A program made the translations under genes and the position numbers. The notes below the pieces were generated by a model that did not search any database, was not told the DNA's origin, and saw nothing but the letters and a program-made list of their open reading frames with translations. Of a stretch of 49,473 bases of DNA, positions 7,041 to 43,371 are shown piece by piece. The stretch's first letter is position 1, and every line of letters starts with the position of its first letter. The DNA comes from Nemertoderma westbladi (taxonomy: Eukaryota > Animalia > Xenacoelomorpha): the NCBI GenBank assembly GCA_032718475.1, contig JAUCBJ010007733.1, positions 1 to 49,473 of the forward strand. Reading direction: 5' to 3'.

Positions 7041-7041
7041 G

Positions 7042-9430: not shown

Positions 9431-9448
9431 CATGACTCTAGGCTATAT

Positions 9449-9615: not shown

Positions 9616-9759
9616 TTAGTGCGTATGTAAATTATGTACATTAGTACAAGTGTACAAGTATACATTGGTATGTTCATACCATACGTTTACGGTTATTGTA
9701 CATTTGTACCCATCGGACATACGTAATTATGTCTTTATTTTATAATTTTTTATATTTTA

Positions 9760-14550: not shown

Positions 14551-16712
14551 CACCCGCTCCCATAAATAATGAGTTATTGAGTCCATAGATGTTTATTGGA
14601 TCTGGGAGGTAGTCGTCGGTAGAGTTTCCTGTTTACCATAGTTACCGGATAACTCTCGGTCTCACTCTAACAGACACAGACGACCAATTGGGCGATTGAG
14701 TTATTGAGTCTCGAAGACTATTCCTTTCTTCTTATGGTTATGCTTCATAACTACGAGTTCTACCAATCACACTAAACCGTCATCGGATATATGGGTCTCG
14801 ATGATACGACCTATCTGCCACCTCTTGCGGGGAAGATCCGAATCGACTATTAGGACAATGTCTACGACGCTGATATATTCTTGCTGCGCAAACCATTTAG
14901 TTTTGAGTTGCAGCATCAGAAGATAGTCAAAATGATCAGCGAAATGGCGGGATAACAACTGCATCAGTTGCCACGTCTGTTTGCAGTATTTGTCCCCGTC
15001 GTTAATCTCCAATATGGGAAGCATGGCCACTGGCTTCTTGAGCAGAAAATGCACGGGTGTTAATGCTTCTAGGGAATCTGGACTCGAGGAGACTGGCATA
15101 AATGGTCTCTCATTCTGGTAGGCGGCGATTTCTTCCATCAGTGTTCGCAGGAGTACGTTAGTGAGATACGCGTGGCGCAGCACTACAAAGTGGAATGCAG
15201 TCTTGACACTGCGTATAAGTCTCTCCCAACTTCCTCCCCACCAAGGAGCATCTGCGGTGTTGAAGGTCCAGCTGGATGCTGTCACTTTCAGCTGATCGTG
15301 TACCTGTCTTTGGTTCCAGTCGTTGACGTAAGCTTTAATCTCATTGTTGGCTCCGATGAATTTTTTACCTTTATCCGATCGCATAGTATTGCTAGTCCCA
15401 AAACGAGCGATTTGTCGACGTAAACTGAGTATGAAACTATTGGTAGATAAATCATTCACCATATCCAGATGAATCGCTCTACAAGTTATATCAAACAAAT
15501 ATAACGCACCATCGCTTGACTATAGTTCTAGAGCATTACACTTCAATAGGGCCAAATATATCCACACCAGTATTGGTAAAGGGTGGTTCATAACAGCTTA
15601 CTCTTTCCCTAGGTAAATCCCTAGGTTCTGTCTCTTGCTTGGTTAAAGGCCTAATAATTGCTTTCCTATATGCTATACAGTTTCTAAGAACTTGATTTAG
15701 CTCTTTGCCCCTTTTTGAAAATAATAGCGGGTTCTAATTTCGCTAAGAACTCGTTCCCTACCGGCATGATAAAGCCTACTGTGTACATCTACAATCATCT
15801 TGATTTGTATCTCAAGATTTCTAACTAGTATGGGAAACTTAGTATCAAAGGAAAGGGGTGCGTTGGTTAATCTCCCTCCAACACGTATTAGCCCATCAAA
15901 CATCATGCTAGAAAAGGAATCCCTTAAGCATATCTGTGGATTTCTCAACAACAGGATCCTCATGACATTGTAGAAGTCTCAGTAGTTGCTTGTTGGTATC
16001 ATCATGCTCCTGGTAACTGATCTTGTTAGCAAGAAAGTTGGTAGGTAACTGATAAGTGGGAAGGTCTTTAATGGTGTTGACCTCTTCGACTACTCCTGGG
16101 ATGGTGTCATTGGTTACCTTTGGCTTGGAATAGTGATGATGGAAACACCTTTTCAAGTAGGTTATGGCTTTACAAAGCCTATTCCAGGAACTATAATACG
16201 CCCTCACTCTCTGAATAATAGGAGAGAGTCCTTCAGAGACATTGGGTATACCAGTCTTCCAATCCCGGTCTCGAATATAAACAACTGCCTTACTTTGGAC
16301 TCATTTAGGATCTTTGGATCTTTCTTCATTAGGATCCTTATTATAATCACCGGCCGTATGCAGTACTGACAGATCTATCGCCGGCTTGAACAGTTTAGAT
16401 TTACTCGTCCGGGTTTTAGGTTTAATGGTTTCCGCTCCCTTGGCTTGTCTGATCTTAGCCGTAGTAAGATGGGGGGGGGGGGGCATTCCTCCTCCTGTTT
16501 ACTTAAGAAGTCAGGGCCACCTAACCAATCGGGAGTATCCGCATTCTGGTAGGTCCTCCTCTGGAGGCTATGTCGGCTGGATTAATGGTTCCAGGGCAAT
16601 GTCTCCATTGGTCTATATTAGTGCGACTAAGTATAACAGCTACTCGGTTAATGACAAAGACGCTGAACTGGCAGACTTTGTTAGTAAGATATTCTAGAAT
16701 GAGTAATGCATA
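14551..16712 (-). mobile_element. 3' fragment of a BEL/Pao element related to 532-7040 (RNase H end, integrase, PPT)
   Basis: Integrase ORF 14767-15498 (RAIHLD, SDKG, APWWGGSWERLIRSVK, LTPVHFL, WQIGRI). 15350-16712 aligns with 532-1878. The sense purine tract GGGAGCGGGTG (14561-14551) is followed by TGTGAC. Confidence 0.9.
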
Positions 16713-18387: not shown

Positions 18388-18969
18388 TTAAAGAACTCTA
18401 CACTTTCTACCATTATTGAACCGCCTTTTTTTAGGGAACGGCACAGCTCTGATAGCCTAGTCAAACACTTGCTTCACACCTTTTTGCGTTAACGCCGAAC
18501 ATTCTAAATACTTTTTAGCTTTGATACCCTTAGCCATGACCAATCCGTGTCGATAGGATATTGGAGACTGTTTCTTGTCCTGAAGCTTTTCAATCGTGTC
18601 TTTATCATCTCTCAGATCCAATTGGGTCCCGATTAGAATGATAGGTGTTTCTGGACAATGGTGGTACACCTCGGGGTACCACTTGGTGCGGACATTCTCG
18701 TAAGACGCGGGACTAATCAAGGAAAAACAGATGAGGAAAACATCAGTCTGGGGGTAGGCGAGGGTTCGTAATCGGTCGTAATCCTCTTGCCCTTCCGTAT
18801 CCAATAATCCAAACATGATTGGTCTACCGTCAACCATTACATTACCTGAGAAGTCGTTACACGTAGTCGGAATATATTTAACTGGAAAAGCATTCGTTAT
18901 GTAACTAATTACAAGGCATGTTTTACGAACCGCTCGGTCGCCAACTACCACACATTTAATTGCTTGCAT
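18388..18969 (-). pseudogene. rac: Rac-family GTPase pseudogene (copy 1)
   Basis: Near-identical to 46580-47158 but with P-loop GDRAVRKT (G12R, G15R) and GAG>TAG at 18457-18459. The stop removes the polybasic/CAAX tail, which is still readable to 18388. Confidence 0.93.
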
Positions 18970-20214
18970 TTTTTGGTAAATGATATATTTCTAATTGAGT
19001 AAATGAGATAAATTAATGATATATTTATCAGAGTAAATGATACGTTAACTAATCAAATTTACAGTATATATTCCTACTGTAGTTAAAAATCTGCAGTTGT
19101 ACAGCAACTTGGGGGTGGGGTTTAAGCACGGTACTAGAGGTACTACAGTACAGGTAGTACCAACAAACTGCGGTACTAAAATTTATTCAAATGTTTCTTC
19201 TAGAGTTACACAAGTACAATAGGAATAGTTTGTTAATTAAAAATAATCTCGCAAAATTACCCAGAAATAAGAATTACTAAGAATAAATAACACAAAAATT
19301 ATAACTCGTTTGAGACAAATTCACAAGTAAGCTTTGTTGTGCCCAATCTTCGTCTGCAGATAAAACTCCACCCTCATATTGAGATACTTTCGCCCGGGTG
19401 CCCAGAAGCCATCATCGGCCATTTAATAATTACAACTTTATTCAGTTATTGGGTTGCTGTTTATTACCAATATAGAAACTGTAACCTGCGCTATTGACTG
19501 CCGTTTAATATTTTGGTTAGAATAACATGCCACTGTAACCTGCCCGGGTTGGTTGGAACATCGACCGCTACTTATAATTACGAGGTAGGGGCTGCTTACA
19601 AAGGTATGTATTGATTATAACCAAAACAATACACGGAAGTCAGAGCACAGGTTACAATCATAATCAGCTACACAACTATTTAAATTATTGTAAATAATGC
19701 CCTTGATGCGTACCCTAATATATTATTAACAGAGGGGTTATTTTTAAATAAAATGGATTGTTCTTAAAATATACGTTTAATAGAAAAAGCAAATGACATA
19801 ATAGCCTAAAAAAGTTATGTTTTACACCTACTTTTTAGACAGTGTATTGTATAATTTAATTTAAATATAATATGCTGAATCCACCACTGAAGTAAATTAA
19901 TACTAAAACACACAGTACATAGGCCTACTACTACATGTCCGGTTTGAGTATTTATTATTATTACTGTATTATTATTGATTAATAATTATAGTTTATATGC
20001 AGATAAAATTGTGGTGGGAATGTTAAAAACGAACACTACACTGAAAACAATACCGTAGTGGCCATGGGATCCCCTTCTAAAACTCAACAATTTCGAAATT
20101 AGAACACAATGCAAAAATTTACTTTCTCGTCGGATTGGCATCGCATGAAGGTAGGACTACACTTTCCATTAGTAGGCCACGTGAACACATTGATGTACTG
20201 TAGTTATATCTAAG

Positions 20215-20900: not shown

Positions 20901-21159
20901 CATTGGCATACCTACTGGGATCCATCCGCATAGCAATCTAAGTAGGCCTAAAGTATATTTATTTTATCTAAGGTGCATGCCAATACTTTGTTAACCATCT
21001 GTTGTAACCATCAGTTAATAATTTTGTTGATTTTCTTTTATATGATATATATATGATATGATATATATATATAGGATTCATGTAAAAAAGTTACATCATG
21101 AGTTTTTGGAAGGAAAGTCTGTCGGACTCGGAAGGCTGCGTTTGCTTACTCCGTCGGCC

Positions 21160-21300
21160 GTCGCCATTGTCCCGTTTACTGGTTGTAATAGACTCCACCA
21201 CCATCGCCCCGGGTTTAGTAGACTCTGTCGCCATCGTCCCGGGTTTAATAGACTCAGAGACTCCATCGCCATTGTCCCGGGCAGCCGGGTTAAATAGACT
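21160..21300. repeat. Imperfect tandem repeat of ~30-40 bp (CCATCGTCCCGGGTTTAATAGACTC core)
   Basis: Four to five degenerate units visible. Confidence 0.75.
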
Positions 21301-21422
21301 GACAGCGTAACAGCCCCTATAGGCCTAGTCAGATAGTACTCTGGCCGGTTACATCGCGTTTCGGCAACTGTCACGTTTAGGCAACTCATATTCGCGTTTC
21401 GGCAACTGAACAATTATGTTTC

Positions 21423-22015
21423 TGTGACGGGATCAGGGGATCCCGACCAGTTGGGTTTATGTACGCGTCAGCTGCACCGTGTGATGGAAAAGATGAGAGT
21501 TTGTTGTTCCAATGTTGTTAATAAACTCGGTAATATATATGGTTATAGTGTACAACGATAGCAGATAGCACAGTTGACATTGACCGGTAATATGGTATAT
21601 GGTTGGTGACGGCGGTGACGGTCTTAAAGTGTCACCGTTCTGCCCTAAGTGACTGAGCAAACTACTGAGTAAACTGAATGTTATGGGCACCGACCGGTAA
21701 TATATATCTAATCACCCTACATTACCTTGGCCCTATTACTCAGCGGATGCCTTTCCTGTCCCCCCATTGGTTGGTAACCTACTTCTCGCCTTCACCTCTA
21801 TGGGAGTGCTTCCCCCCCCACTGCTGTTACTCTCTCTCCTTGAGGTAGCTTGACCTCTAACTTCTATTGTGTGGCTCTTTGGGGCTGTGTATTGTGCCCG
21901 TTATTGGGGGTGATACGAGGTTGATTGGTAATCAACCTCGTACTTCCCAATATTGCTTAAAGGCGCCCTTTCCAACTTTATGGGGGTTGGTGAGGCGGAA
22001 TTGAATCCGCTCACA
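21423..22015 (-). repeat. 3' LTR (593 bp)
   Basis: Direct repeat of 28793-29396 with about 12 substitutions and a poly-C length difference. Confidence 0.97.
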
Positions 22016-22439
22016 CACCCCCATGCTATCTTCACGGTGAGAAGATAGCATCAACCTCTAAGCGCGCTTCAATTCCGCTGCAAACCCGATCTACTATCGG
22101 GTGTGGGGTGGAGTTATTTTTTATTTTATTTTTCTCAGAGCCGGCTTTCCAGGCCGCTCCCTATGGGTATGATATCGCTACCCTGTCTTGGTGCAACTTC
22201 ATCTATCTTGCACCAAGACATCTGGCGTCCCGTGTCGGGCCAATTGTGGGTTTCTCTCACACAATTTTTGTTTCCCCAACACTCTCTCCACTCTAACTTC
22301 TCCACTCTACCTTACTCTCTACTCTAACACTCTCACTCTCTCCCCACACCTGAATCGCACTTGTCTGCACTCTCTCTCGCATCCTGTCTCCTCTCCAGAC
22401 TTCTCTCATACTCCTGTATTCTCTAAGGCCCTAATCTCT

Positions 22440-23000
22440 TATACTATCATACTGTGCTATCATACTATCTACCTTATCTAAAGTCTAACTTACTACTTAC
22501 TCTACTAACTCTAACTCTACTGATTCTAACTCTAACTCTATTAGCTTTCTAACTCTCTACTAACTCTCTACTTAACTCTCTACCTCTACTAACTCTAACT
22601 CTACTAACTCCTAACTCTACTGCTACCTCTAACTCTGCTACCACCTCTATCTACGTGGCGCTTGCGGTGCCCACAACCACTCTGCTTACTACCTCCATCT
22701 ATGTGGCGCTTGCGGTGCCCACAACCACTCTACTACTACTTCCAACTCTGCTACTACCTCTATCTACGTGGCGCTTGCGGTGCCCGCAACCCCTCTACTA
22801 CTCGTGGCATGTGAATATACCACACTCCCTTATACCCGCCGACTTCTAACGGTACCTTACTTACTATCTTCTAACTACTACTTACTATCTTCTAACTTTC
22901 TACTTACTATCTAGCTTCTACTAACTATCTGACTGCTAACTTCTTACTATCTTCTAACTACTACTTACTATCTTCTACTAACTTTTCTTACTTAATTATT
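22440..23000. repeat. Low-complexity CTA/CTCTAA tract with three copies of CTA(C/T)GTGGCGCTTGCGGTGCCC
   Basis: Directly visible in the 3' untranslated part of the BEL element. Confidence 0.85.
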
Positions 23001-23231
23001 TATTATTTTTCTTATTATTTTATTTTAAATAATTATTTTTGTGTGGGAAGGGCGTCTCGCCCTCATTCCCACCCCCTCAGTCCAAAATATTGGATGACTA
23101 AACCTCATCTAAACTTCGAGGGCGATTCTTCCAACAGGCACTCTCCCACTGCTCCCCTTGTAGGTCCTGTAGGATTCGCCACACTCTCCTCGCCAATTCC
23201 AACTCACCAGGAATTGGTTCCCCCTCTCCTG

Positions 23232-23912
23232 TCACCCTAAAAACGGGTCTCTCCGCCGCCTCTTCTTAATTCCCTCGTCTCTTGGCATCAAAATGCCACC
23301 TCCCACCTTGTTGTCTCCCGGCGGCAGAATGAAAAGAAAGTGAAAGAACAGGCCAAACAGAAGGTACAATAGTAATCCTATCCCTTTCCATCCTGTCTTC
23401 TTACTCGAGCTCCCCTTTGTCGGTATGCCTCTCAACCGGCCCGGCGTCTCTTCCGGACACTCCTCTGGACACTCCTCTAGACACTCCTTCCAACACTCCT
23501 CCAGACACTCCTCCGGAGTGTTGTCCTCCGGACATCTCGCCGTCCGCTCCTTCCCATCCCCATACCGATACTTGCTGGGAACCTTGTTCCATCCCATTGC
23601 CTCTAAGTCTTCCGCGTCAAATCCATTCTCCTCCGCCCACTCTCCTACTGTTACTTCCCCGTCTGGCTCGTCTACCATCTCCGGTTTATTATCTTCGTCC
23701 TCTGTGTCTACGGTGCCTGGTAACATGCACCCTGATGTCTCCGTCACTCTGGATGGAATCTTGGTTTTAACTGGGCCGCTAAGCGTCCATCCGAACGGCA
23801 TGAGGATCGCCGTCGGATCCCGCTGTCTGTCTTCGCCGAAGACCATCTGTATTCTCTCGTGGGCCGTCGGGCAGTCCATTCCTACTATAATGGATACCTT
23901 CCTAACGTCCAC
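23232..23912 (-). pseudogene. Frameshifted continuation of the BEL polyprotein after the protease
   Basis: IIVGMD..P.A...PFGWTLSGP is the typical BEL post-protease motif. It is followed by an acidic region, a (CxEE)n repeat and a hydrophobic stretch. Confidence 0.75.
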
Positions 23913-23946
23913 CTCTGGTATTGAGAAATCGATACCGTCCAGGAAT

Positions 23947-26571
23947 CTATATTGTTCGACTTCGATGTTGGTTGGTTGGTCGCCTGGCGTTGATATTTAT
24001 CGATTCTATCAAGTGGATGGGGTCGATCGTCGCCCCATAATCGCATCCTGGTGCTATCGCAGCTATCTTGCACCGCCCCGTCCTCATCTCCAGGACCTCA
24101 TCCTTACTTGAGACGGTAGTTACCGCCATCCTATTCGGCCTCGTCTTTAGCCCTATCTCTTCGGCCACCCAATTCTCCACCAGCGTGAAGGCTGCTCCGC
24201 TGTCGACCAGCATTAATGTCGTGACTGATCGACCACCCTCTCCTGATATCTTCTCTGGTACTACCCCAAGTAGTACTTTCCTCTTTCTTCTTACTGCTGT
24301 CATGCTTGTAGCCATGGTTTGGCCTCCAGTCTCACTCTCTCCTATTGCTGTTTCTCTACACTCTCCGGATCTGTGTCCTTCTACCATGCATCGATGACAT
24401 AGTCCGTTTGTGTCTGTGTAGGCTATATGATCTTGTTTGGGCAACGCTTGCCAGTGCTTACAACTCATGGTCTTATGGGTTCCGTCCCGATGTAATTGAC
24501 ATTCGAATCCTGGATTATTGCGTTCCCTGTATAGTCCCTCACGTATCGCGCGTAGGTTTATATCCACCAATTTAGTGTTTTGGTTGTCTGTACTCGGCCT
24601 ACTGGGTATATTGGGATTATGTTTATTTGTGTTGTTATTTTCTTTCTGTCCCTGCCATGGTGTGGCCCTACTCCCAGCTAACTGTGGGCTTGTAGCCCCC
24701 TGTGTGGCCGCGTGTGGTAGCGACTGTCTTACTCTCGGGAATGGATCTGCAGGATTGTGTTCGGGTTTAGGCCTGTTGTATTCGGTCTTTGGCGCCTTCC
24801 CCAAACTATCCTCACTATAGACTGGGTCTGTAATCAACTCGGCTTCGTTGTTGAGGAAGTTTGACATTTCCTCTAGCCCTGGCTCCGCACCTATCTTCTC
24901 CCGAGTGGAGAAGGCGATCTTCCTCCACTTGCTCCGCAGGCAGATCGGCAGTGCCTGCGCTATCGTGGTGATGTTATTAGATGCATTGAGTTCGTTTGGC
25001 GTGTCTAGCGTCTTCAGTATGATTAACGCCTTCTCGACTTTGTTCGCAAAAGTCTTTATGCTAACGGGGTTATCCTGTAGGCCACCCGATGTTATACCCC
25101 TCAGGGTTTGCCGGATGATCTTGGCTGGGTGCCCGTACTCCCTGTCTAGCGCCCGCCATGCTGTCGTGAAGCCGCCCTCGATGCCCTGGTACTGCCTCAC
25201 GATGTCGTATGCTGGGCCTCCTGTATACACTTGTAGATATTTTAGGCACTCCGCCTGCGTCAAGTTCTTACTTAATATCTCGTTGCTGTACATGCGCCGA
25301 AATTGCAGGAATTCTTCCGGCCTACTTCCCTCGAATTTAAATGGCTCGTCTGGTGGTAACTCGATCCTGGTCTTTAGTGCATCGATTAGCGTCGCCATTC
25401 CCATTGCCTGTGCTTCCAATGGGTTCGAGGGATGTTGTACAGATTCTCCTGTTGGTTGTGGTCCGCCCGTCCTGTCTGTTGACCTAACTTGTGTCGGATA
25501 TATCATTGGGGGTAACGGCCCCCTCCATATTTCCGTGTCACACGACCTGTTCTCGTCCAGGGGGTTCGATGTTCTCATTGATGTTCGAGTATATTGTTGA
25601 TATTGTAATGGGGGAATGTCACATGTCACCCTGCCCCCCCCCCCCCCCCCCACCGGTATTATATTTGGTACTGGGGTTGATGTTAATATATTGGGGCCCA
25701 TACACCTATCTGCAATAACTCTCCCCTCCCCTGGATATATGTTATGTCCCTGGATATTATAGTCATGCTGCTGTGCTGGTACCGATATAGGCCTATCCAC
25801 TTCTTGCCTACCTACTGGCATGTACTCCGCGACTTCCGGATCTAATCCCGTCGTTCGCGCTATCCTATCGCCTACACTATCTCTCCCAGCATGGCCTATA
25901 ATAGTATGTTCAGTAAGGCCTACAGTATGTCCTGCAGTCTGCATGTGCCCTTCCGAACCGAAGTTTATTCTTCTTGAATCTCGAATCTCCCCGCGACTAC
26001 CGTACTCTCGATCGGCAGCTATATCCCGTCGGGAAGTTTCTCTTCGATCCCCTCTCCTGTTCTCGTCTTCGTATCGGTACATCCTGTACCCCTCTCCTGG
26101 CGTGTGGTGCGTTTCTCCGGGGCGACGGCAATCTCCCGAAGTTCGACCCCACTGACTCCCTAACTCCATCTCTACTACCGACGGCTCGCTATCCGTCCTT
26201 GCTCTCCGGTTGCTCCCAGCAACGATTCTTCTATTATTATCTTCACTTCTTCTCTCTTCGACCTCCCAGTTAAACTCTACTACTCTTCTTCTCTCTTCGA
26301 CCTCTCGGTTAAACTCTACTAATCTTCCTCTCTCCTCCGACTGACATTTTCTCGCTCGCCCACTCTCGGCGCTAACATCTGACTCTACTCTGTCCGGCTG
26401 GACCCTCCTGGGGATACTCGCCATCCCCCTACTATTCTCCGCCATCGGGTGCCGTGGTTCACCTAACTTGCCCCGCGCATTATCTGTCGACGCCTGTGGG
26501 ACATTCTCTACCCCCCCCCCCCCTCTCTCGCCACTAATCTTCCGTGGTGGGGCGCCTGTAGCCCCCCCCAC
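23947..26571 (-). CDS. BEL/Pao Gag-protease (874 aa open segment; N-terminal parts frameshifted up to ~28616)
   Basis: F.G...F..F motif, YL..YT.GPA, YG.P, LP..LR.KW, Cys/His knuckles (CQLHRDGTHKTMSC, CHRCMVEGHRSGEC) and aspartic protease LVDSGA. Confidence 0.88.
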   Translation of the reverse strand: MGGATGAPPRKISGERGGGGVENVPQASTDNARGKLGEPRHPMAENSRGMASIPRRVQPDRVESDVSAESGRARKCQSEERGRLVEFNREVEERRRVVEFNWEVEERRSEDNNRRIVAGSNRRARTDSEPSVVEMELGSQWGRTSGDCRRPGETHHTPGEGYRMYRYEDENRRGDRRETSRRDIAADREYGSRGEIRDSRRINFGSEGHMQTAGHTVGLTEHTIIGHAGRDSVGDRIARTTGLDPEVAEYMPVGRQEVDRPISVPAQQHDYNIQGHNIYPGEGRVIADRCMGPNILTSTPVPNIIPVGGGGGGRVTCDIPPLQYQQYTRTSMRTSNPLDENRSCDTEIWRGPLPPMIYPTQVRSTDRTGGPQPTGESVQHPSNPLEAQAMGMATLIDALKTRIELPPDEPFKFEGSRPEEFLQFRRMYSNEILSKNLTQAECLKYLQVYTGGPAYDIVRQYQGIEGGFTTAWRALDREYGHPAKIIRQTLRGITSGGLQDNPVSIKTFANKVEKALIILKTLDTPNELNASNNITTIAQALPICLRSKWRKIAFSTREKIGAEPGLEEMSNFLNNEAELITDPVYSEDSLGKAPKTEYNRPKPEHNPADPFPRVRQSLPHAATQGATSPQLAGSRATPWQGQKENNNTNKHNPNIPSRPSTDNQNTKLVDINLRAIREGLYRERNNPGFECQLHRDGTHKTMSCKHWQALPKQDHIAYTDTNGLCHRCMVEGHRSGECRETAIGESETGGQTMATSMTAVRRKRKVLLGVVPEKISGEGGRSVTTLMLVDSGAAFTLVENWVAEEIGLKTRPNRMAVTTVSSKDEVLEMRTGRCKIAAIAPGCDYGATIDPIHLIESININARRPTNQHRSRTI

Positions 26572-28792
26572 CCGCTACTTCTAACTTCACTATCTCTTAC
26601 TTCACTTCTATGCCCCCCTTGTGGGGCATTCTCTGCCCCCCCCCCCCCTCTCTCGCCACTAATCTTCCGTGGTGGGGCGCCCATAGCCCCCCCCCCCCCC
26701 ACTCGCCACTTCTAACTTCACTACCTCTTACTTCGCTTCTACGCCCCTCTCTAGTCGATGCACTGTCTCTACTGCAGCTGGGTCTACTCACCCCCGCCTC
26801 TCCCTGTGCAACTGCGTGGCCTGGCAGGCTCCCGTCTGGTTGACTCACCCCCGCTACTCCCTGCCTACAAACTACGTGGCCTACCAGGCCCCCATCGGGG
26901 TCTCTCACCCCCGCTACTCCCTGCGCACTAACTGCGTTGCCTTGCAGGCTCTCGTTGGCCGGACTACCTGTGTCTACATTAGTATTAATAGCGCCGTTTC
27001 AATATTATTGTTTAAGTTATTTAAATTAGAATTATTATTATTTTCTAAATTTAAATTATTATTCGAATTATTTTCTATATTTGAATTTAAATTATTATTC
27101 GAATTATTTTCTATATTTGAATTTAAATTATTATTTAGATTATTTTGAATATTTGAATTAGAATTATTCGGATTATTTAAATTAGTATTATTATTTGAAT
27201 TATTTGTATTTAAATTTAAATTACTACTACTAGGTAAAATATATCCTGCAATAAAAGTTTGATTAGGGTTATCTACTATGGTACTATTAATATTAATATC
27301 TTCTAACGTATTATTATTACCCCCCCCCCCCCCCCACCCGCACGGCTACACCACTTCTGGCTCCTCGTAAACACTACCCGAGCCAGCCTCAATCTCTGAT
27401 AGTCCCAACTGCGCCAGTTCTAGTCGGCGCTTCTGCTTGGCCTGATACTGCATAAGCCCCCTTAGCCGGGCATGCATATCATCCCGCATACGCTTTCGGC
27501 CAACTCTGCCTCCCTTGCAATCCTCTCAAGCCGCCTCGCGGCCGTGTGGCCTCGCTCCGCCTCACGCTCTTTACGCTCACTCGCCTCTCTCACCTCTCGC
27601 TCTCTACGCTCGTTCTCTATTTCCTCTGCCCTCGCTGCCTCTCTCACTTCTCGCTCTTTACACTCATTCTCTATCCTCGTCTCCCGCTCTTTACGCTCAT
27701 TATCTGCTCTCGTTTCTCACTCTTTATGCTCATTCTCTGTTCTCGTGTCTCGCACTTTACACTCATTCTCTATTTCTGCCTCCCGTTCCTCGCATTCCTC
27801 TGCCTCTCTCGCCACTCTCTCGGCCCTCTCTCTACATTCCCTGGCTAGCTCTCTCTCTCTTTCTAACAATGCGGCTCCCTCGCTCAATTGTCTCTCTAGT
27901 TCTTTCTGATCTAGCGCCGCAATGCTCAGCTAACATGCCAGATCTATCTCTAACACCCTTCTTTCTTTCGCCGAGGATGTAGCGGACTTATCGGTCACGA
28001 CGGACTCCCGTCGCCTCTCTGTCCTGCTAACTTTCCCCCGCTCTCCGGGGTTTTTGTTGACCGACGAGACCGGGGTTAACCTCGGATTCGCCCTCCTGCG
28101 GTCCCCTCCAACCCACTAACTTAATTCCCCGGGCATCGACTAAGTATGGCCCTATGTACACTACACCAGGCTCCATACCCCTACATTCCCACAGTTCGAA
28201 CAGTTCGGTGGCGACCCCTCTCGCTCTCTCATTGGCTAGTTCTCCCTGCCCAAAGTGCACTAGATAATCAAAATGTTTATTCGACTCACCTAGCCGCTTC
28301 TCTAACTTCACCTGGTCCATCTTCGCCCCTTCTTTGGCTTCCCTCAGCTGTTTTCTGGTTGCGTTGTAGGCTCGTCGGAGCCGATCGCTGACTCTGACGT
28401 CCTCGTCGCCAACATCCCCTCTTTCTCTCCGTGTTTGGCGTCGTACCGGCAGCCCCACCGTCGCCGTTCCGGTGGGCCGTCCGTCGCCTTCGGCCTGTGG
28501 CCGGCCGGCGACATCGGTACGTCGTCCGCCATCGTGCGTCGACTCGTCCCTCCCTTCTCTCGACTCGCTCGTCCCTCATTGTAGACGGCCCCCCTCCGCT
28601 TGGATTGCCGGATCATCTGTAGTCGACAGATCCAGCGTCGTGGGTCGATACCGTCGCGCCGCAGCCTCGCGGATCGTTAGGTTGTCGTCCGGGGTCCGCA
28701 GCGGTGTCGTCTCTCCCTCTAGATCTTGGGCTTCGCTCATCCTTTAACTTTCTTCTTATCTTTAACACTAGGCCAGCAGGTGACTTTAAGAC

Positions 28793-29396
28793 TGTGACGG
28801 GATCAGGGGATCCCGACCAGTCGGGTTTATGTACGCATCAGCCGCACCGTATGATGGAAAAGATGAAAGTTTGTTGTTCCAATGTTGTTAATAAACTCGG
28901 TAATATATATGGTTATAGTATACAACGATAGCAGATAGCACAGTTGACATTGACCGGTAATATGGTATATGGTTGGTGACGGCGGTGACGGTCTTAAAGT
29001 GTCACCGTTCTGCCCTAAGTGACTGAGCAAACTACTGAGTAAACTGAATGTTATGGGCACTGACCGGTAATATATATCTAATCACCCTACATTACCTTGG
29101 CCCTATTACTCAGCGGATGCCTTTCCTGTCCCCCCATTGGTTGGTAACCTACTTCTCGCCTTCACCTCTGTGGGAGTGCCCCCCCCCCCCCCCCCCCCCC
29201 GCTGCTGTTACTCTCTCTCCTTGAGGTAGCTTGACCTCTAACTTCTATTGTGTGGCTCTTTGGGGCTGTGTATTGTGCCCGTTATTGGGGGTGATACGAG
29301 GTTGATTGGTAATCAACCTCGTACTTCCCAATATTGCTTAAAGGCGCCCTTTCCAACTTTATGGGGGTTGGTGAGGCAGAATTGAATCCGCTCACA
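28793..29396 (-). repeat. 5' LTR (604 bp)
   Basis: Direct repeat of 21423-22015, with sense TATATA near 29077-29069 and an initiator-like TCAGTT near 29047-29042. Confidence 0.97.
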
Positions 29397-29544
29397 GTTT
29401 CACCAACTGCTATAGTTGTGTTTCGGCAACTCATAGTTGCATTTCGGCGAACTGAAGTCGCGTTTCGGCAACTAGGTCACAAACCCTTGTATGTAATGTA
29501 ACTTGTAAAATCTACCTAAAGGGAACAACTTTACCAACTGTTAG

Positions 29545-30474
29545 GTGAATCAGTCTCGGACGCGTTGTTACAACCCGAAGAGGAAGAATAACTATATTGT
29601 CTGGATGGGAAGTTAGAAGCGCTTACTGACTTTCTCCGTAGTTGCGGCGTACCGATCGACGAACCAGAGTTCGTACCGGGAGAAACGGCAGGAGTTATTG
29701 CTACGGAAGGCTCGCGAGCCTACCAAAATCCTCATATGGTTAGATCGTTTGTCAGCAACCAACTGTGCGCTCTCAACCCTTTAGTGATGTCGAAAGAGGG
29801 ATACGTATCCGCGATGCCTCAATACGACGAGTTGTTGGAGGTTCTTCACATATTGCCTCTAGATAGCGGATTTAAAGTCGTGAGGGATTATTTTCTCCAG
29901 ATACACCCGGATAATAAGAACACCTGGAACTTCCAAACCGTGGTGAATCGCATTACCGCTGGAGAGTTCGACAAATTACGAGTCGAACAACGCAACCAAG
30001 GAGCATGGCATACTATCGCTTGGGCTTATCGAAGTGCGTTTTATAACAAGCGAATGACGTCCGGTATACTCGACGCTGAGGCAAGAAACCAAGTTTAAAG
30101 CGACTCCGTTGTCGGATTCGATGCACCATCCTCGAGAGGACGCCCAACACAGTATACTTCGATCCCAGAAGGTGGGACAAGACGTGAAGCGGATAATTAA
30201 TGTGGCGGAGAGGACAACACCCGAATCACAGATCCGGATTACCCGAGATACCGTTGCCCTTCCTAGAGAACCGCGAGGAGGGACAGGATATCCTTTGCCC
30301 GAACCCATGAGGGTTCAGACGACGTCTGAGAGTGAGGTGTCGGCGGATAGTTCGATTCCGCTCCCCGAACTTCCTCAGAGCGTTATAGAAACTCCATGTG
30401 AACCGATTAGACGAATGGACATCTGTGTTATATTATTTGAGATATTATGTTTCGTCTTATTTGAGTTGGTTTAA
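29545..30474 (+). pseudogene. Unrecognised decayed coding-like region
   Basis: The frame of ORF 29736-30098 stays open back to a stop near 29587 and reads as protein-like; ORF 30109-30474 follows. Balanced composition against AT-rich flanks. No family recognised. Confidence 0.35.
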
Positions 30475-31885: not shown

Positions 31886-32094
31886 TTTGCTTGGTACTCG
31901 TACGAACCGGTACTATAGCGGTACCGAAAACGAAAATTGTCTTGCCAATACAGAACATTGATTCATAGCCAAGCCCTCATTGGTCTACGCAACCAGCAAC
32001 CAATTAGCACGTACGGTATCGGATAATAAATTACTTTTGGGACGTAAATTGTGTGAAATTATCGGATAGTATTAATTAACCCCGATCAGACGAT

Positions 32095-32245
32095 TGTTAG
32101 GATCTACTATTAACAGGTAAAGCCATGCTACACAGAATATAGGCCATGCCAGTTTATGTAGGCCTGTTACCGTATACTAAGCGTGTTGGAAGTAACTCAT
32201 AACTGATTAGTTTTACATTGCTACATCGGACAGGGATATCCAACA
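32095..32245 (+). repeat. Gypsy 5' LTR
   Basis: TGTT..AACA, identical by eye to 38791-38941. Confidence 0.97.
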
Positions 32246-32772
32246 ATTGGCGCTGCGATGGAAAATATTGAACACATACACGCGGTTACACAAGCAGACA
32301 GGTTTTGAAGTACCTATGCTTACCTACAGCTTCATGTAGGCCTACAACGTAGATTACAGCATTCAGTAATTACAGAAGTTCAGCATTAGGCCTACATGCC
32401 TACAGCCTACGCCGAACTACTAATGCACATACAAATGTCTACAACATACCAGTACCGGTATTTCAGAAATTACGTTTAAATTGAACACGTTATACGCCGT
32501 TGTTCTATAATTCGGACGCCAACCTACCAGGTAAGCAGATTACACTGCAGGTACGGTTACCTACGGGAGTGAAAGGACTGCATTACAGCACTTACAGCAG
32601 TCAATCCGCGAGTTTTAACGATTGCCTACACACTAGGATAAGGCAGTTATCTACAATCTACAATTCTGCAGTAAAGTAGTCAATCTGCGAATTAACTGAA
32701 TACTAAACTGCATACGCCTCTACATACTACCGGTACGTGTTCAATTTCAAAATTCAACTTACACTACAAACT

Positions 32773-33704
32773 ATGGCAGTTTCTACAAAGTATGCCAAAC
32801 TATTCAAGCCTTTTAAAATGTCTACAGACAAATGGCCAGTTTATAAAACCATGCTAGCGGTAATAATTGATTCGACAACTTTCAATAATGACGCAAATTT
32901 AGAAGCTGAAAAGCGTAAATTATTCCTTGCGAATTGTGGCACAGACCTACTCGAAATTGCTATGGATCTAATCTACCCTACAGACATACTTACAGCAAAT
33001 TACACAGATATTATTACAGCAGTGGATACATACTTCAATCATAAAATAAATAAAGAAGCTGAAATACGTAAATTCATCAGATTGCAGCAGAAACAACATG
33101 AAAGCATAGCCGAATTTTCTAAATCAATCAAAGCAGCTTCACGTTACTGTGAATTCGGAGCTACCCTTGATGGTAGACTAAAAGAGCAATTTTTAGCAGG
33201 GGTCAAGGATGAATACATAGCCACAGAGTTAATGAGACAGAAACCAGACACTTTTATTGCAGCTGTTGACATAGCAACAAACTATGAAGAGGCACGAGAA
33301 AATGCAAAGCGTGAGGTGGATGGTATATCAGTAGAGACCCACAAACTACAGTTACAGTCCAGGTACCGCATAAAAGCTAAAGATACAAATACAACGCATA
33401 TTGTGTGTTACCGTTGTAATAGGAATGGACACAAAATTACCACATGCAAATTACCAGATACAGTAAAATGTAATTCCTGTGGGGCTTCAGGGCATATACA
33501 AGCCGCTTGCATGAAAGCAAACAAAAAAACCCCAAATAACATAGGACATTCGCGTCTCAATAAATCGGGTACTACAAACCCATATAAATCTGGAACTACA
33601 AGCCAGAAAATGAAACAATTACAGGTTACAGAAGACAGCGATGTTGATGGGGAAGAGTATGATGACGATTTCATACATTACATGAATCTGGTAACTACAA
33701 TTAC
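32773..33704 (+). pseudogene. Gypsy gag, interrupted at its 3' end by the LINE
   Basis: ATG at 32773; CYRCNRNGHKITTC and CNSCGASGHIQAAC. Removing the LINE and one TSD copy joins it in frame to TVNPINLL..LDSGA. Confidence 0.92.
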
Positions 33705-35437
33705 TACTAGGATCGGCATGCTGCATTGCAGCTGCATTTTTAAGAATGCTGTGCCGGCTTGTCAACAAAATTGCACCGCCACAACTCCCTATCACCCATG
33801 ACATTTGCTAGATCATCCGCATCTTTAAGGCCAGTGTCCTTTAAGATGCGTCTCAAGAAAGTCATGGGCTGTCCACCATGCTTATTCACTCCATGAGGCT
33901 GCCAAAGTACAAGATTATGCACAGGCTGGTCCTCACGGCGAAAGCAATGTCCTGCAAAGCGGAGGCGATTTTGTTCTAGTGTCAAGCTTGGGGGAACCAA
34001 TGAGACACCTCCAATGTTATATAGTGTCTGGTTGGAGATGTGTGCATTGTACTTGACACAATGTACCCGGCGTAGCATTCTTGTGAATGTGCCATCCAGA
34101 GATTTGGTGTCCTCAGCAGTTAGAGCCCAGCATGGACTCCCGTAGAGGAGTACTGGAACTACTGCTGCTCTAAATAATCGGACCTTAAGTTTCCGATTAA
34201 TTCTAGGTGACTTCCAAATCCTGGAAAGCCTATTCAAGGCTGCCCATGCCTTTCCCTTACGTATTCGAAGGTCCTCACCTGACTTCCGGATCCATGATCC
34301 CAGGTAACAGAAGTCGTCCACATGCTCAAGCATACCATCCTTTGAGCTTATGCTCATCCGATCAGAGACTTGCTGAGGACTTTCAAAGTTAACTGTCAGA
34401 ATTTTGGTCTTTCTGGAGTTAATAAAAAGACCAACACTAGAAGCAGCATGTTCTAATGAGCTGAGGAGCCGCTGGGCTCCCTCTAATGATTCTGAGAGTA
34501 CTCCTAAGTCATCAGCAAAGTCTAGATCAGTTAGGTACTTGGCAGGATTTCCTCGACTTCTGGAGCCAGTAGGTGGAGTTATCATCACCCCATCTTCATT
34601 ATGATGATCTAAGGACATGCGTAGAACATAGTCAACCACAATAATGAACAAGAATGGTGCAAGTGTGTCTCCTTGGAGGACGCCCCATAACACTTCAAAT
34701 GGTTCTGTGTCACCGTCAACAGTAGACACAAATGTTGTCGAACCATCGTATACTGATCTGATTGCTGCAATAATTTCATCAGGAATCCCATATAATGAAA
34801 GTATGCTGAACATACGTGAGCGAGAGACTGAATCAAAGGCCTTGAAGAAGTCAACAAAGATAACAGCCAGATGCCTGTCTTTCTTTTTTGATAACTCTTC
34901 AATTATCCTTCTAAGTGCCAAAATGGGCTCCATGGTCCCACGACCTTTACGGAACCCATTCTGATTTCCACGTAGCAGTCTCTCAATGGGATCCCTGATG
35001 CGATTTAATAGAATTCTATTGTATAGTTTTGCAGCAATCGAGATCAATGAGATTCCCCGAAAAGAACCATAGAGTGTTAGGTTGCCCTTCTTGGGAACTG
35101 GCACCAACTTATTTGTTTTCATTTCTTGTGGGACTCTTGTTGTACGGTACATGTCTACTATGATGGGATAGATGAGCTTTAAACACTCAGGTATTTTAAA
35201 GACCTCAGGGGGAACACCATCTACTCCACTGGCACGATTGGTCTTAATGCTCTTTGCAGCAGCCTTCACTTCTGCAAAGGAGATATCGCCAATGGGAATA
35301 TCTGGGAGTACAGACTCAGACACTTTTACTTCTATAAAGTTATCAGGCAATACCCTGTCATTATTGAGGAGCTTTTCAAAGTGGGCTTTCCAACCATTGA
35401 GGCGATCGGCTGGTGATTCAGCCTTAACCTTGGTTAG
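33705..35437 (-). mobile_element. 5'-truncated RTE-like LINE nested in the Gypsy
   Basis: 12-bp TSD AACTACAATTAC (33693-33704, 35438-35449), very short 3' UTR and a (TAG)n-type tail instead of poly(A). Confidence 0.95.
33740..35434 (-). CDS. Non-LTR reverse transcriptase domain (no start codon; endonuclease missing)
   Basis: Uninterrupted frame with PKKG, RGISL, QNGFR, FVDF.KAFDSV, GVLQGD.LAP.LF, FADD and YLGS. Confidence 0.93.
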   Translation of the reverse strand, partial: TKVKAESPADRLNGWKAHFEKLLNNDRVLPDNFIEVKVSESVLPDIPIGDISFAEVKAAAKSIKTNRASGVDGVPPEVFKIPECLKLIYPIIVDMYRTTRVPQEMKTNKLVPVPKKGNLTLYGSFRGISLISIAAKLYNRILLNRIRDPIERLLRGNQNGFRKGRGTMEPILALRRIIEELSKKKDRHLAVIFVDFFKAFDSVSRSRMFSILSLYGIPDEIIAAIRSVYDGSTTFVSTVDGDTEPFEVLWGVLQGDTLAPFLFIIVVDYVLRMSLDHHNEDGVMITPPTGSRSRGNPAKYLTDLDFADDLGVLSESLEGAQRLLSSLEHAASSVGLFINSRKTKILTVNFESPQQVSDRMSISSKDGMLEHVDDFCYLGSWIRKSGEDLRIRKGKAWAALNRLSRIWKSPRINRKLKVRLFRAAVVPVLLYGSPCWALTAEDTKSLDGTFTRMLRRVHCVKYNAHISNQTLYNIGGVSLVPPSLTLEQNRLRFAGHCFRREDQPVHNLVLWQPHGVNKHGGQPMTFLRRILKDTGLKDADDLANVMGDRELWRCNFVDKPAQHS

Positions 35438-35449
35438 AACTACAATTAC

Positions 35450-38400
35450 AGTAAACCCAATAAATTTGCTGGAAAAAGTTGCTCCAATGACTTGCACACC
35501 AGAAATAAATGGTAAGATTGTTAAATGCGAACTAGATTCAGGAGCTAGACACTCAGTAATATCTTTTAAGCAATTCCAGGAACTATTCCCATGTGAAAGC
35601 TTAGAAGAAACAGATACAATATTAAAAGGATTTTGTGATGGAATACAGAATGTAAAGGGTATTAGTAAAGTAACAGTTAATATACCCAAATTAGGCATCA
35701 CTGAACATACAGTAGTTTGCCTTTGCTCATAATTGACAAAGCATTACAAGGTCTTCCACTTTTCGGAAAATACTGGATAGACAGGTTAAACTGCGGAGTT
35801 GATTGCCTCCGTGACAATTTTACAGGTACAAGTGATAAAAAAACAATGGTACACATTGGAAACAATGTACAATTCAGTGATACAGTGAATAACTTGAAAT
35901 TAGAATTCAAGGATGTCTTTACGGGTCTTGGGAAATTCAAGGGACAGCCTGCAACATTAGCATTGTCAGATGAAGCCAAACCAAGATTCCTAAGTTGCCG
36001 TCAAATAGCATTTGGGTACAAAGACGAAGTCATTCAGATTCTGGAAAACGACCTGAAACGTGGTATTCTACGCAAACCTGAACCCAATGAGGAAATAAAA
36101 TGGGCAACCCCATTGGTTGTTTCATTGCGAAACAATAAAATTCGTGTGTGTGGTGATTACAAATCCACAATAAATCCATTTCTCATTGAAGATACTTTCC
36201 AGTTGTCAACCTTAGATGAAATCACAAACAAAATTTCTGGAGGACAGGAATTTACGATCCTTGACTTGAAGGAAGCATACCACCAGTTCCCATTAGTTAA
36301 AGAAGCTGAGCTAATTACTACGCTAAACACACCATTAGGACTACTAATTCCGACTAGAGTTCCATATGGAGTAAAAAGTTCAGGAACTAAATGTCTCAGG
36401 GGAATATACGAAGCCTTGCATAACACTAAAAGCGCCACGTACATGGATGAATGTGTTATTACTGGGAAGAACAAAGCAGAGCATATTGAAAACCTCAAGT
36501 CTGTTTTATCTGCCCTTCGCCACTTTGGGTTGACATTGCGTATGGAGAAATGTAAGTTTTTTCAAAATACAGTCGAGTTCTGCGGACATCTAATTTCTAA
36601 AGATGGTATTCGCCCAGACCCCAAAAAGATAGATACAATTGCTGCTCTTCAACCACCGGAGAACGTCAAAGAACTCCAATCAGTACTTGGATTATTCAAC
36701 TACTTGCATAAATTTGTCCCATCATTTGCTGAGATAGCACAACCAATGTACAGTCTACTTTCAAAGGATGCAGAATTCATATGGAACGATACAACAAACC
36801 AAGCATTCAACAGAATCAAAGCTGAAATAGCAAAGTCAACACTACTGACATTTTTTGATACAAAAAAGGAAACCACGATAATCACTGACGCATCACCGAC
36901 CGCCGTGTCTGCTGTACTACTCCAAAAACAGGATGACAACTGTTTAACCCCAGTGTCTTTCACATCTGCATCGCTAAATAAATTTCAGCGTAATTACTCT
37001 CAAATCGACCGGGAAGCCCTCGGAATTATATTTGCTGTTCGGAAATTCTGGGAAGACATTTTATTTTAATAACTGACAACTTACCATTGAAACATATCCT
37101 AGCACCTTCTGCGAAATTACCATCAATGGCACTATCCAGACTACAGCACTGGTCTGTTGAAATGTCAAATTACAATTTCACACCAAAATTCATTAAATCA
37201 GAAGACAACCCTGTTGACTGTTTCACAAGGCTTTCTAAGCCAAAAGAAGAGATCGATGGTACGGTTGATATTAAGATTACAGACATACATATGGAGCAAG
37301 CTACAGCGGAATTGTTTAAGTTCAACCGCATAGGCATCAAAGATGCTACTGAGAAGGATGTTATTCTTCAAAAGTTAGTTCTCGAACTAGCATCAGGAAA
37401 TACCTCTAACTCACCTGAACTACGTCCGTATAAACACATCCGGAATGAATTAACTGTCCATAATGGGACAATTTTCCGTGGAATGGCTGTACTGATTCCA
37501 GAGCACCTTCAAAATAATGTTCTCGAAATTCTGCATGAAGGGCATATTGGGAAACAAAGGATGACTGGTTTAGCAAAAGATACAGTTTGGTGGTTGAACA
37601 TTGCTAAAGACATCGACTTATACACCAAATCCTGTGAACAATGCCAGCAGTATTCTAAGGAAGTCCATGTTCCTCTGAAACCAATGCCCGAACCAACCGA
37701 GCCTTTCGAGCGAATCCACCTCGATTTCGGCGAATACGAGGGACAAACATTGTTAGGATTAATATGTGCGAAAACTAAATGGTCTCGTGTTGAACTGGTG
37801 ACAAAGAATCCCACTGCAGAGACTGTTATACAATCTTGCCGACAGTTTTTTGCTGATTTTTCTGTTCCAAAAATTGTTACAGCAGACAATGGACCACAGT
37901 TTCGAGCAGCTGAACTATCACGTTTCTGCAAGGAAAATGGAGTTGCTTTATGGCCCTCTGCTCCATATAAACCAAACAGTAACGGCGCTGCTGAGCGATT
38001 AGTGCAATCCTTTAAAACAACTTTTAAGAAACTGTCCAATTCAAAGATACCTCTGAAAGAAAAGATTGCCATATTTCTCTTAGCTGACCACAGCACCATT
38101 AAAGAAAACGGTCAGACTCCAGCTGAAATGGTTTTTGGAGGTCGAAACATTAAAACACGTTTACATCGCCTACTGAAATTCCCTGAAGATCCAAAGATAA
38201 TCACTACCAGTGGAAACTATATCAAAGGGGAAGCGATCTGGGTACGAAACTTTTCTCGTCGTAAACCTACTGAAAAATGGTTACCCGCGATATATCAAGG
38301 ACTTTTTGGTTCAAGAGTCGCTACAGTGGAAATATGTGGAACCATATTCAGACGCCATCTTGATCACCTGAGGAAACGATTCAGCCCTTTTGTAGGCCAA

Positions 38401-38706
38401 GGGGGAGAGAGTAACAAAGACATTTTTCAGCCAAAACGAGTTGATAACAAAAATGGAGGTACCAAGACAATTGAAACCTCGGCTGATGTGAACATGGGAG
38501 CAAGAGAGGTTACGGCGGAAAACCACTTGGGTGCAAGAGACGATACAGTGGAAACCCAAGAACGAGGACAAATGAGACATACTGTCGAACCTAGTTCGGA
38601 GTCGAGGTCGGATCAAACTCAAAGTGTCGCTGGAACACGATACCCAAAACGGATCCGCAAGAAAACTGATTACTATGGTTTTGACTCGAAAACTAATATG
38701 GACTAA
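35450..38706 (+). pseudogene. Gypsy pol (protease, RT, RNase H, integrase) with two frameshifts
   Basis: LDSGA; WATP, RVCGDY, LDL..AY.Q, YMDE; TDAS, YSQIDRE.LG; LHEGH..C..C, RIHLDF, DNGPQF, SNG.AER.V. Frame changes near 35715 and 37050. Confidence 0.94.
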
Positions 38707-38790
38707 AATGAGGATTAAGACCATATAACGTAGACCATATAATAAACATATATTTGTTCTTTTGAACTGAATATTTCCCAGGGGGAGTAT

Positions 38791-38941
38791 TGTTAGGATC
38801 TACTATTAACAGGTAAAGCCATGCTACACAGAATATAGGCCATGCCAGTTTATGTAGGCCTGTTACCGTATACTAAGCGTGTTGGAAGTAACTCATAACT
38901 GATTAGTTTTACATTGCTACATCGGACAGGGATATCCAACA
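38791..38941 (+). repeat. Gypsy 3' LTR
   Basis: Follows the PPT; identical by eye to the 5' LTR. Confidence 0.97.
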
Positions 38942-39131
38942 ACGATGAGACTGGAACTTATTTCCCATATTGTATTACATTTTCGAGAGTTTTTCGGGAT
39001 AAGAACTATCCGTATCCGCGATTTACAGTACATTCAATACGTCGCTGAATAAATATAGTTTACAGAAATTGCGACCACAAAAAATAATTAGCAATTTATA
39101 TCGAAAATAAATGTCATATAAATTAGAATAT

Positions 39132-39489
39132 CTAAAGAACTCTACATTTTCTCTCATTCTCTCGCCGTTTTTGAGGGAAGAGCACGGCTCTGATGGACTC
39201 GTCAAACACTTGCTTCACACCTTTTTGCGATAATGCCGAACATTCTAAATACTTTGTAGCTTTGATATCCTTAGCCATCGCCAATCCCTGTGGATAAGAT
39301 ATTGGAGACTGTTTCTTGTCCTGAAGCTTTTCAATCATTTCTTTATCGTCTCTCAGATCCAACTTGGTCCCGACTAGAACGATAGGTGTTACTGGACAGT
39401 GGTGGGACACTTCGGGGTACCACTTGGCGCGGACATTCTCGTAAGATGCGGGACTAATCAAAGAAAAACAGATGAGGAAGACATCAGTC
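39132..39489 (-). pseudogene. rac: 5'-truncated Rac-family GTPase (copy 2), residues ~75-192
   Basis: [41 protein letters not shown]. Homology to the other copies stops at 39489. Confidence 0.9.
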
Positions 39490-39700
39490 CGGAAAATAAC
39501 ACAGGGCGTACGAGATAAAGAGAAATTACTGACCAATAGCGGGTGATTTCATCATCAGAGCAGCTGTTTTTGTTTGGAGTTGCTGACCAGAGCTCTATAC
39601 CAAAATAAACGCTAGAGGGCATAAGTTTTTAAATTCTACAATTGCCCGCATAATGCTGGCCTTTTAGAGTATATCGCGAATTGCACAAAAATGACAAAAC
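39490..39700 (+). repeat. Diverged dispersed repeat related to 17560-17735 and 45760-45935
   Basis: Shared blocks such as ACCAAAAT..ACGCTAGAGGGC, TTTTAGAGTA and TGCACAAAAA. Confidence 0.65.
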
Positions 39701-40304
39701 GATGAAGGACTACAGTATGTCCAAGTATTTGGGTATTTGGGTTGTATTGTATTAACTAAAATATTAATCCCCACCTCCTCCGCCTGTTCCATTTTAATAC
39801 CCAACTAATCACTTCCAAAGATACTTAACCAAGTTATGTCAAATTATTTACATTTAAAGAAGTACAGTTTTACTGGCAGATAGGATGGGGTCTCTTGTCT
39901 CTTGACGAATACAAATTCAACCACCTGCAGGGACACCTGTATCTATCTATTAAGGACGGGGTATGATGATTTTTAGAGAAAACAATTGTAATATTTTCAA
40001 ATATAGGTCAGAGTTAATTCAACAGTCTAGACAATAATTTTTTAACAACATTACAGTCGGTAATCAAAATCAAATAATTTACCGCTCAGACACCGATCAT
40101 ATACCGCGGGGTGGTTCAAACTCAGCGGTGTACCGCTGGCTCTGCGGTACCGCGCCGTGTACCGTTCCGTTTCGATGTGAACGGGCCTTGCTTGCCTTAA
40201 GGCTCATGGAAAATTTCATAACAATCGCCAGGCAGGAAGTAAAGCTACAGTAGATGATCTCTATAAATTCTGTATATCCCTTAACTGAGTACATGGGTAT
40301 TTTG

Positions 40305-43215: not shown

Positions 43216-43371
43216 TTTTTTGTAAATGATATATTTCTAAATGAGTAAATGAGATAAATTAATGAGATATTTATTAGAGTAAATTATACGTTAAGTAATC
43301 AAATTTACAGTATATATTCCTACTGTAGTTAAAAATCTGCAGTTGTACAGCAACTTGGGGGTGGGGTTTAA

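Follow-up and report, generated by a model that had tools for sequence, protein, structure and literature searches.

A probable self-primer inside the leader RNA of a non-autonomous BEL/Pao element from Nemertoderma westbladi

Introduction

In the retrotransposon Tf1, the transcript's initial 11 bases are described as the primer for reverse transcription, cut by RNase H (PMC7175516, in its available text), and the leader is described as a three-duplex 'pretzel' (PMC10085805, available text). Self-priming similar to that of Tf1 is described for Tj1 (PMC4600332, available text), and has been predicted for two plant lineages, Tcn1 (Gypsy) and TAR (Houba, Osr-1; Copia) (PMC6317226, available text). 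For BEL/Pao, the ICTV gives an 18-base primer-binding site (PBS) for tRNA-Arg or tRNA-Gly with priming by host tRNA, and describes replication as poorly understood and assumed from the Metaviridae (PMC8742986). Term look-ups in the available text of the Sinbad paper (PMC554778), a BEL/Pao survey (PMC3118150) and a polychaete survey (PMC8556966) found no discussion of PBS or tRNA, and a literature search, with subscription papers, Repbase reports and supplements mostly outside its scope, returned no report of self-priming or spliced primers in BEL/Pao.

Here, we describe a BEL/Pao element in a contig of Nemertoderma westbladi (JAUCBJ010007733.1; the window hereafter, 49,473 nt in full) in which the first 10 bases after the 5' long terminal repeat (LTR) are the exact complement of bases in a predicted hairpin loop within that same LTR. 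The anatomy of the element and this complementarity are established below; that the element primes its own reverse transcription at this site we consider quite probable.

Results and Discussion

A young, non-autonomous BEL/Pao insertion

The element lies on the minus strand and consists of the following parts:

28793..29396, minus strand: 5' LTR of 604 bp, TGTGA..TCACA, delimited by alignment to the 3' LTR and by the target duplication
21423..22015, minus strand: 3' LTR of 593 bp, TGTGA..TCACA, with the same hairpin and a primer copy at 21621-21630
29397..29401, minus strand: target-site duplication GAAAC, second copy at 21418-21422
23947..26574, minus strand: reading frame for Gag (DUF1759) and aspartic protease, from Pfam
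22016..22024, minus strand: likely polypurine tract, a short G-rich stretch preceding the 3' LTR

The insertion is young, because its LTRs differ at just 12 of 593 aligned bases in addition to an 11-base poly-G expansion (98% alike), and the 5-bp GAAAC target duplication is intact at both ends. The BEL/Pao identity given in the initial annotation is borne out by a TG..CA LTR pair with a target duplication within the 4-6 bp of this superfamily, and by a DUF1759-type Gag domain (PF03564, E 8e-11) followed by an aspartic protease (PF13650, E 4e-5). The Pfam search found no reverse transcriptase (RT), RNase H or integrase inside the element, and tblastn with the pol of a neighbouring BEL copy gave no match in 21400-28800. 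The element therefore is a non-autonomous (defective) BEL/Pao derivative; it lacks the RT, RNase H and integrase of an autonomous BEL/Pao element, and also the 18-base site for a tRNA 3' end in the ICTV description. No close relative of its Gag-protease was found by word search (0 of 6451 candidates) and none of the element in the viral contigs searched, the exact 23-base LTR/PBS pattern had no match in metagenomes, and a HMMER search returned matches only at 23-35% identity. No Rfam families were found in 21000-29600, and a bacterial promoter scan, not applicable here, gave no match.

Other features lie within and around the element. An inverted repeat, GCTATCTTC..GAAGATAGC, lies at 22030-22056, immediately ahead of the 3' LTR and of the G-rich tract that precedes it, and the U3 of the LTR holds a perfect 13-bp hairpin (29295-29323) whose bin topped the summed depths of every host DNA run considered below except one. 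Three more broken BEL/Pao copies occupy the minus strand at 1-7400, 8000-12300 and 14500-16700. No 3' LTR is visible for the copy at 0-7 kb, which bears an RT. The related Gag element (about 8-12.3 kb; DNA identity to the element studied about 72%) has neither an LTR pair within the window nor a matching PBS. A Gypsy element (32093-38942) carries 154-bp identical terminal repeats, a TGG primer site and, inside it, a LINE-type RT frame (33740-35743, minus strand). Four further stretches are related to one another (18457-18990, about 39095-39492, 42631-43236 and 46580-47179), two of them confirmed as single-frame Ras-family genes, and a 3.2-kb duplication, 97% identical, contains two of the four. 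Long tandem arrays of 10-base and 12-base units are found at 6955-7450 and 40290-41600, the 12-base array in both orientations.

The primer site and its complement in the LTR

The internal region of the element begins at 28792 with GTCTTAAAGTCACC. Three features bear on its priming:

28783..28792, minus strand: PBS core, the first 10 internal bases, without TGG
28991..29000, minus strand: putative self-primer, its presumed 3' end at 28991 opposite the first base after the LTR, proposed from the exact complement, the shuffles and the layout of relatives
28779..28782, minus strand: four-base PBS extension, pairing with the hairpin 5' arm after a 2-base bulge and repeating 3'-arm sequence

As the initial annotation had noted, there is no tRNA-type TGG site right after the 5' LTR: TGG is absent from the first 12 internal bases, and the nearest lies at 28775. 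The sequence at this TGG is presumably not tRNA-like, and we rejected it as a displaced tRNA site; other copies cover the region poorly. In the Gypsy element of this window, TGG lies 2 bases after the LTR.

Within the window, the exact complement of 28792-28783 is found only at 29000-28991, about 200 nt inside the LTR, and at the equivalent 3' LTR position. The exactness of this 10-base match, and its stopping precisely at the LTR boundary, had both been claimed before and both stand, the complement starting at offset 0. When the LTR was dinucleotide-shuffled 20,000 times, 12 shuffles reached a complement of at least 10 bases at offset 0 and 31 did so at offsets 0-5, and no internal control position of the 200 scored equalled the PBS of the element; the loop/PBS complementarity is confirmed as real and far beyond chance. 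The further extension to 14 bp with a 2-nt bulge is indeed present, with a predicted pair probability of 0.77-0.78 for the four bases at 28779-28782, but it does not exceed chance by itself, being matched by 140 of 500 shuffles when 8 upstream bases were considered and by 21 of 500 with 25 upstream bases. An intron splitting the element's own primer was rejected, as no YAG acceptor gives a match; the primer scores 10 as a contiguous complement and 0 as a spliced one, and is thus not of the GT..YAG-interrupted kind.

Instead of the LTR complement, a host tRNA half or fragment might prime this non-TGG site, as in some Copia elements, the LTR match then being a by-product. We count in favour of such priming a partial resemblance of the loop to what we take to be the anticodon arm of animal tRNA-Leu(UAA). 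Half-tRNA priming is known in Copia (PMC6317226, available text), and tRNA priming is what the ICTV gives for the BEL/Pao family (PMC8742986). Yet a tRNA primer offers no reason for an exact copy of the complement inside the LTR, and taken with the relatives described below we regard it as very improbable. No tRNAs were found in the 49,473-nt window or in the 38 loci scanned.

A hairpin and a primer duplex as predicted alternative folds

The complement sits in a hairpin, and the folding of the leader involves the following features:

28983..29007, minus strand: 7-bp perfect stem with an 11-base loop holding the primer, -9.5 kcal/mol
28975..28990, minus strand: segment freed on hairpin opening, predicted in a constrained fold to pair with 28848-28836
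28798..28815, minus strand: U5 hairpin with a 7-bp perfect stem just before the PBS, pair probability 0.98-0.99
29043..29076, minus strand: predicted core promoter with a TATA-like motif (29076-29071), an initiator-like TCAGT (29047-29043) and a start at about 29045

The primer takes up the first 10 of the 11 loop bases of the 29007-28983 stem. The earlier description of a 7-bp stem displaying the complement in its loop proved accurate; the stem is perfect, and stems of at least 7 bp enclosing a 10-mer occurred at only 19 of 44,800 shuffled positions and at 2 of 552 other real LTR positions. Folding of 29045-28740 yielded a state at -72.9 kcal/mol in which the 5' arm lies on the leader and the primer is partly paired, a second at -72.5 kcal/mol with the hairpin closed, and a third at -70.2 kcal/mol with the full primer duplex, which is hence not the minimum-energy fold of the element leader. 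Pair probabilities in this fold were 0.22 for the hairpin and 0.44 for the middle of the duplex. When the RNA was started at 29012 or 29007, the hairpin dominated (0.98-0.99), and from starts at 29012 or later the primer duplex vanished (p 0.00-0.05). In the predicted open state, the freed 3' arm lies on U5 and the U5 hairpin adjoins the PBS; the sequence that follows the PBS is a repeat of the 3' arm, so that it competes with the latter for the 5' arm. The models have hairpin and primer duplex as mutually exclusive alternatives and, because of this predicted exclusion, the stem is likely a lock that opens rather than a loop that pairs while the stem stands. A standing kissing pair between loop and PBS with the stem closed, which nested folding cannot represent, was rejected, since 10 paired bases in an 11-base loop would be sterically unlikely. 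That the hairpin acts as a lock on priming is our tentative suggestion from these models, and we give it somewhat less than even weight.

The predicted transcript start lies about 45 bases upstream of the primer. Together with the splice-spanning primers of relatives, this position is in line with the proposal in the initial annotation that the primer is internal and not 5'-terminal. An ordinary Tf1-type element would instead start its transcript at or next to 29000, so that the primer is the RNA 5' end, the 5' copy forms no hairpin, and any role of the stem would be confined to DNA or to the 3' LTR copy. Such a start finds some room in the promoter evidence, the start site being a prediction and its motifs being repeated (within the LTR there are three recurrences of the TATA-like motif and four of TCAGT), and a 10-base primer at offset 0 fits the 11-base geometry of Tf1 (PMC7175516, available text). 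We nonetheless judge it quite unlikely, as no TATA-like motif lies about 30 bases upstream of 29000 and an RNA starting at 29000 gives a primer duplex probability of only 0.05.

Copies of the element in host DNA

Family data came from four DNA runs of one organism, representing at most three samples, with 132, 223, 149 and 7 contigs per run on 28755-29035. Depth peaks were rejected as proof of conservation, given that overlapping short contigs inflate depth, and conservation was judged instead from loose contig ends and variants. Divergent contigs in every one of the four runs end loosely near 28973 and at 29014. Because these loose ends bound the stretch between them, a 42-base island (28973-29014), hairpin included, is common to otherwise unlike copies, and the presence of the hairpin 5' arm inside this island again speaks against an RNA that begins at 29000. 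The hairpin 3' arm carries no substitution among the variants listed, and 28956-28972 is highly variable. In U5, one frequent variant, 28807, is located in the U5 hairpin loop and another, rare one, 28798, at the stem base of that hairpin. The family-majority base at 28837 turns one G-U pair into G-C in a helix that folding predicts for the open state only. Visual inspection of a single contig, whose leader departs after 28782, showed that it still has complements to two LTR segments immediately upstream of the hairpin.

Possible splicing signals were also seen in the LTR. A good splice donor (AAG/GTAATG) is found at 29095, upstream of several YAG sites (29047-29012) that precede the hairpin, and the loose ends of divergent copies show pyrimidine-rich runs ahead of TCAG. 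The TCAG sites in the predicted promoter region could be splice acceptors, and the LTR may hold an intron upstream of the primer, which would shift the start site.

The loop variant 28994 T>A, at 5-8% of depth in three runs and 52% in the fourth, has no partner change at 28789 among the variants listed for the host runs; likewise, none at 28993 is listed for the variants 28790 G>C and G>T, which may stem from the flanks of 3' or solo LTRs, divergent copies possibly being missing. Across the four runs, no compensatory loop/PBS change within the host family appears among the variants listed. This would be expected if the loop/PBS pairing were a structural or regulatory contact (dimerisation, packaging or translation control), or the relic of an inverted template switch, and priming were achieved otherwise; consistent with such an origin, the hairpin is absent from relatives and the primer duplex is not the minimum-energy fold. 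It is hard to reconcile with a pairing that ends exactly at the LTR boundary and with relatives that share the geometry at offsets 0-3. Moreover, in a young element with an intact target duplication some primer has worked, and no other site is visible. A contact or relic therefore seems to us improbable.

Probable splice-assembled primers in distant relatives

Relatives were gathered by alignment seeded with the RT of the neighbouring BEL copy, giving 79 metagenome and 11 MAG-record loci, with Gag tblastn matches in 41 of the 90 BEL RT loci and Gag identities to the element of 21-28%. Twenty-one of the 90 were kept, their 5' LTR end being fixed by an LTR pair; loci without a pair, with a truncated pair or with tandem repeats were left out. 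TGG occurs within 12 bases of the LTR in only two of the 21 (L077 and L078), and a contiguous 10-base complement in one. In 11 of the 21, a complement of 10-15 bases is found only across a GT..YAG intron inside the LTR, with 0-1 of 200 internal control positions as good in each case (two of the 11 represent one family) and with the donor GTAAG in eight of the 11, though these were selected on GT alone. The expectation that the same PBS-to-LTR match would recur in different letters across many distant BEL/Pao families is upheld by these spliced complements.

At first scoring, nine of the 21 loci had no significant complement. L034 was recovered with one G-U pair and L087 with a reset LTR end, L011 carries a truncated LTR, and neither TGG nor a primer spliced at GTRAG is present in L080 and L029. 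The latter may be another intron-less case, with a contiguous 10-base complement of low complexity that 2 of 200 controls equalled. A blind LTR-end scan of 16 loci gave spliced matches of 10-14 bases in eight; these loci are weaker support, because their controls reached 7-12 (24 once). In the final set of 21 loci, 14 with fixed ends and seven from the blind scan, 16 have a GTRAG..YAG intron spanned by at least 10 Watson-Crick pairs (with 0 of 100 controls as good in each case), one needs a G-U pair, three are without a spliced primer and one has TGG.

The 17 spliced primers correspond to 15 distinct PBS cores; the first base is G in 13 and the second T in 15, and the G-then-T start of most spliced relatives is also that of the element studied. 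PBS-LTR pairing offsets in relatives are 0-3. In the sibling pair L081 and L082, two differences at the exon end are each matched by a compensatory change in the PBS. A host tRNA primer fits poorly with 15 PBS cores in 17 relatives each matching their own LTR splice junction, and with the compensatory changes of these siblings, and a primer that spans a splice junction cannot be the bare unspliced 5' end of an ordinary Tf1-type RNA. The relatives are the strongest support for self-priming by the element, though an indirect one, given Gag identities of only 21-28%. Predicted folds follow the splicing: the primer duplex has a mean pair probability of at least 0.73 in nine of 12 whole spliced leaders (0.63, 0.01 and 0.00 in the other three), and of at most 0.21 in 11 of the 12 unspliced leaders.

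The initial annotation had further supposed a loop-derived primer to be a trait of the lineage. This found no support, for in none of the 17 relatives is the primer free in the loop of a hairpin; one shows an enclosing pair, but with the primer half paired. Their primers would instead be built across an intron. The bulged extension was likewise rejected as a clade-wide trait, being equalled by 13 or fewer of 200 shuffles in only three of 17 relatives.

Placement by RT is impossible for the element itself; the RT-bearing BEL copy of the window (1-7400) appears to group with the TGG-bearing L077, and tRNA-primed and self-primed BEL lineages may be neighbours. Eleven of the BEL/Pao RT matches (L080-L090) are in bacterial MAG records, several with LTR pairs, and are likely host contamination.

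A model of internal, conditional self-priming

Priming by an internal self-primer is the best reading of these data because of the spliced complements in relatives and the compensatory changes between siblings. As the overall explanation we propose, as likely, that the primer comes from within the element's own leader RNA and is held back by the predicted hairpin until the PBS pairs. In this model, the RNA would begin near 29045 and the 7-bp hairpin would fold first. The PBS would then pair with the loop and displace the stem, as folding predicts, giving an open state in which 29000-28991 and part of the 5' arm lie on 28792-28779 at an energy near that of the closed state. By analogy with Tf1, RT supplied in trans would cut once with its RNase H after 28991, leaving a capped fragment about 55 bases long whose 3'-OH points at the last LTR base, from which the borrowed RT would extend. 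Sequence upstream of the cut would be regained from the 3' LTR copy after strand transfer; such recovery would explain how relatives keep their LTR intron, which would be lost if the 3' copy were spliced.

Compared with its relatives, the family of the element is likely an intron-less derivative of a clade with a splice-assembled primer, in which a hairpin may have replaced splicing as the gate. More speculatively, and with some doubt on our part, much of BEL/Pao could be tRNA-free, with an internal conditional primer that is mostly gated by splicing, the intron having been lost here and a hairpin opened by the PBS serving as a strand-displacement switch.

If the model is true, self-priming would extend to a third LTR superfamily and in a form other than that of Tf1: internal, splice-made in relatives and enclosed by a hairpin here. 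A self-primer inside the leader would account for BEL elements without a TGG site, and elements so primed might neither depend on the host's tRNA supply nor be open to control through tRNA fragments. The model makes a one-base prediction, an RNA 3' end at 28991.

Comparison with known systems

Among described families, Belpaoviridae (Semotivirus) share with the element a DUF1759 gag, an aspartic protease, TG..CA LTRs and a 5-bp target duplication, whereas their PBS for tRNA-Arg or tRNA-Gly, RT, RNase H and integrase are absent from it (PMC8742986). The element has the complement of at least 10 bases in its 5' LTR, with a site 0-5 bases after the LTR, by which the TAR and Tcn1 lineages were predicted to self-prime; those lineages belong to other superfamilies and hosts, and neither a hairpin gate nor a spliced primer is described for them in the available text (PMC6317226). 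A PBS complementary to at least 10 bases of its own 5' LTR also links the element to the Tf1/sushi group, but Tf1, Tf2 and Tj1 are Ty3/gypsy chromoviruses and the element, with its BEL-type Gag, is of another superfamily. The primer of Tf1 is at the RNA 5' end, whereas that of the element is predicted about 45 bases inside the RNA and, unlike that of Tf1, is enclosed by a competing hairpin; in relatives, again unlike Tf1, it spans a splice junction. The post-PBS bases of the element are predicted to pair upstream of the primer and those of Tf1 pair downstream. Where Tf1 forms its 'pretzel', three helices are predicted for the open state of the element, 2.7 kcal/mol above the minimum, and their partners differ. 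The element is probably Tf1-like in its priming, yet stands outside the Tf1/sushi group.
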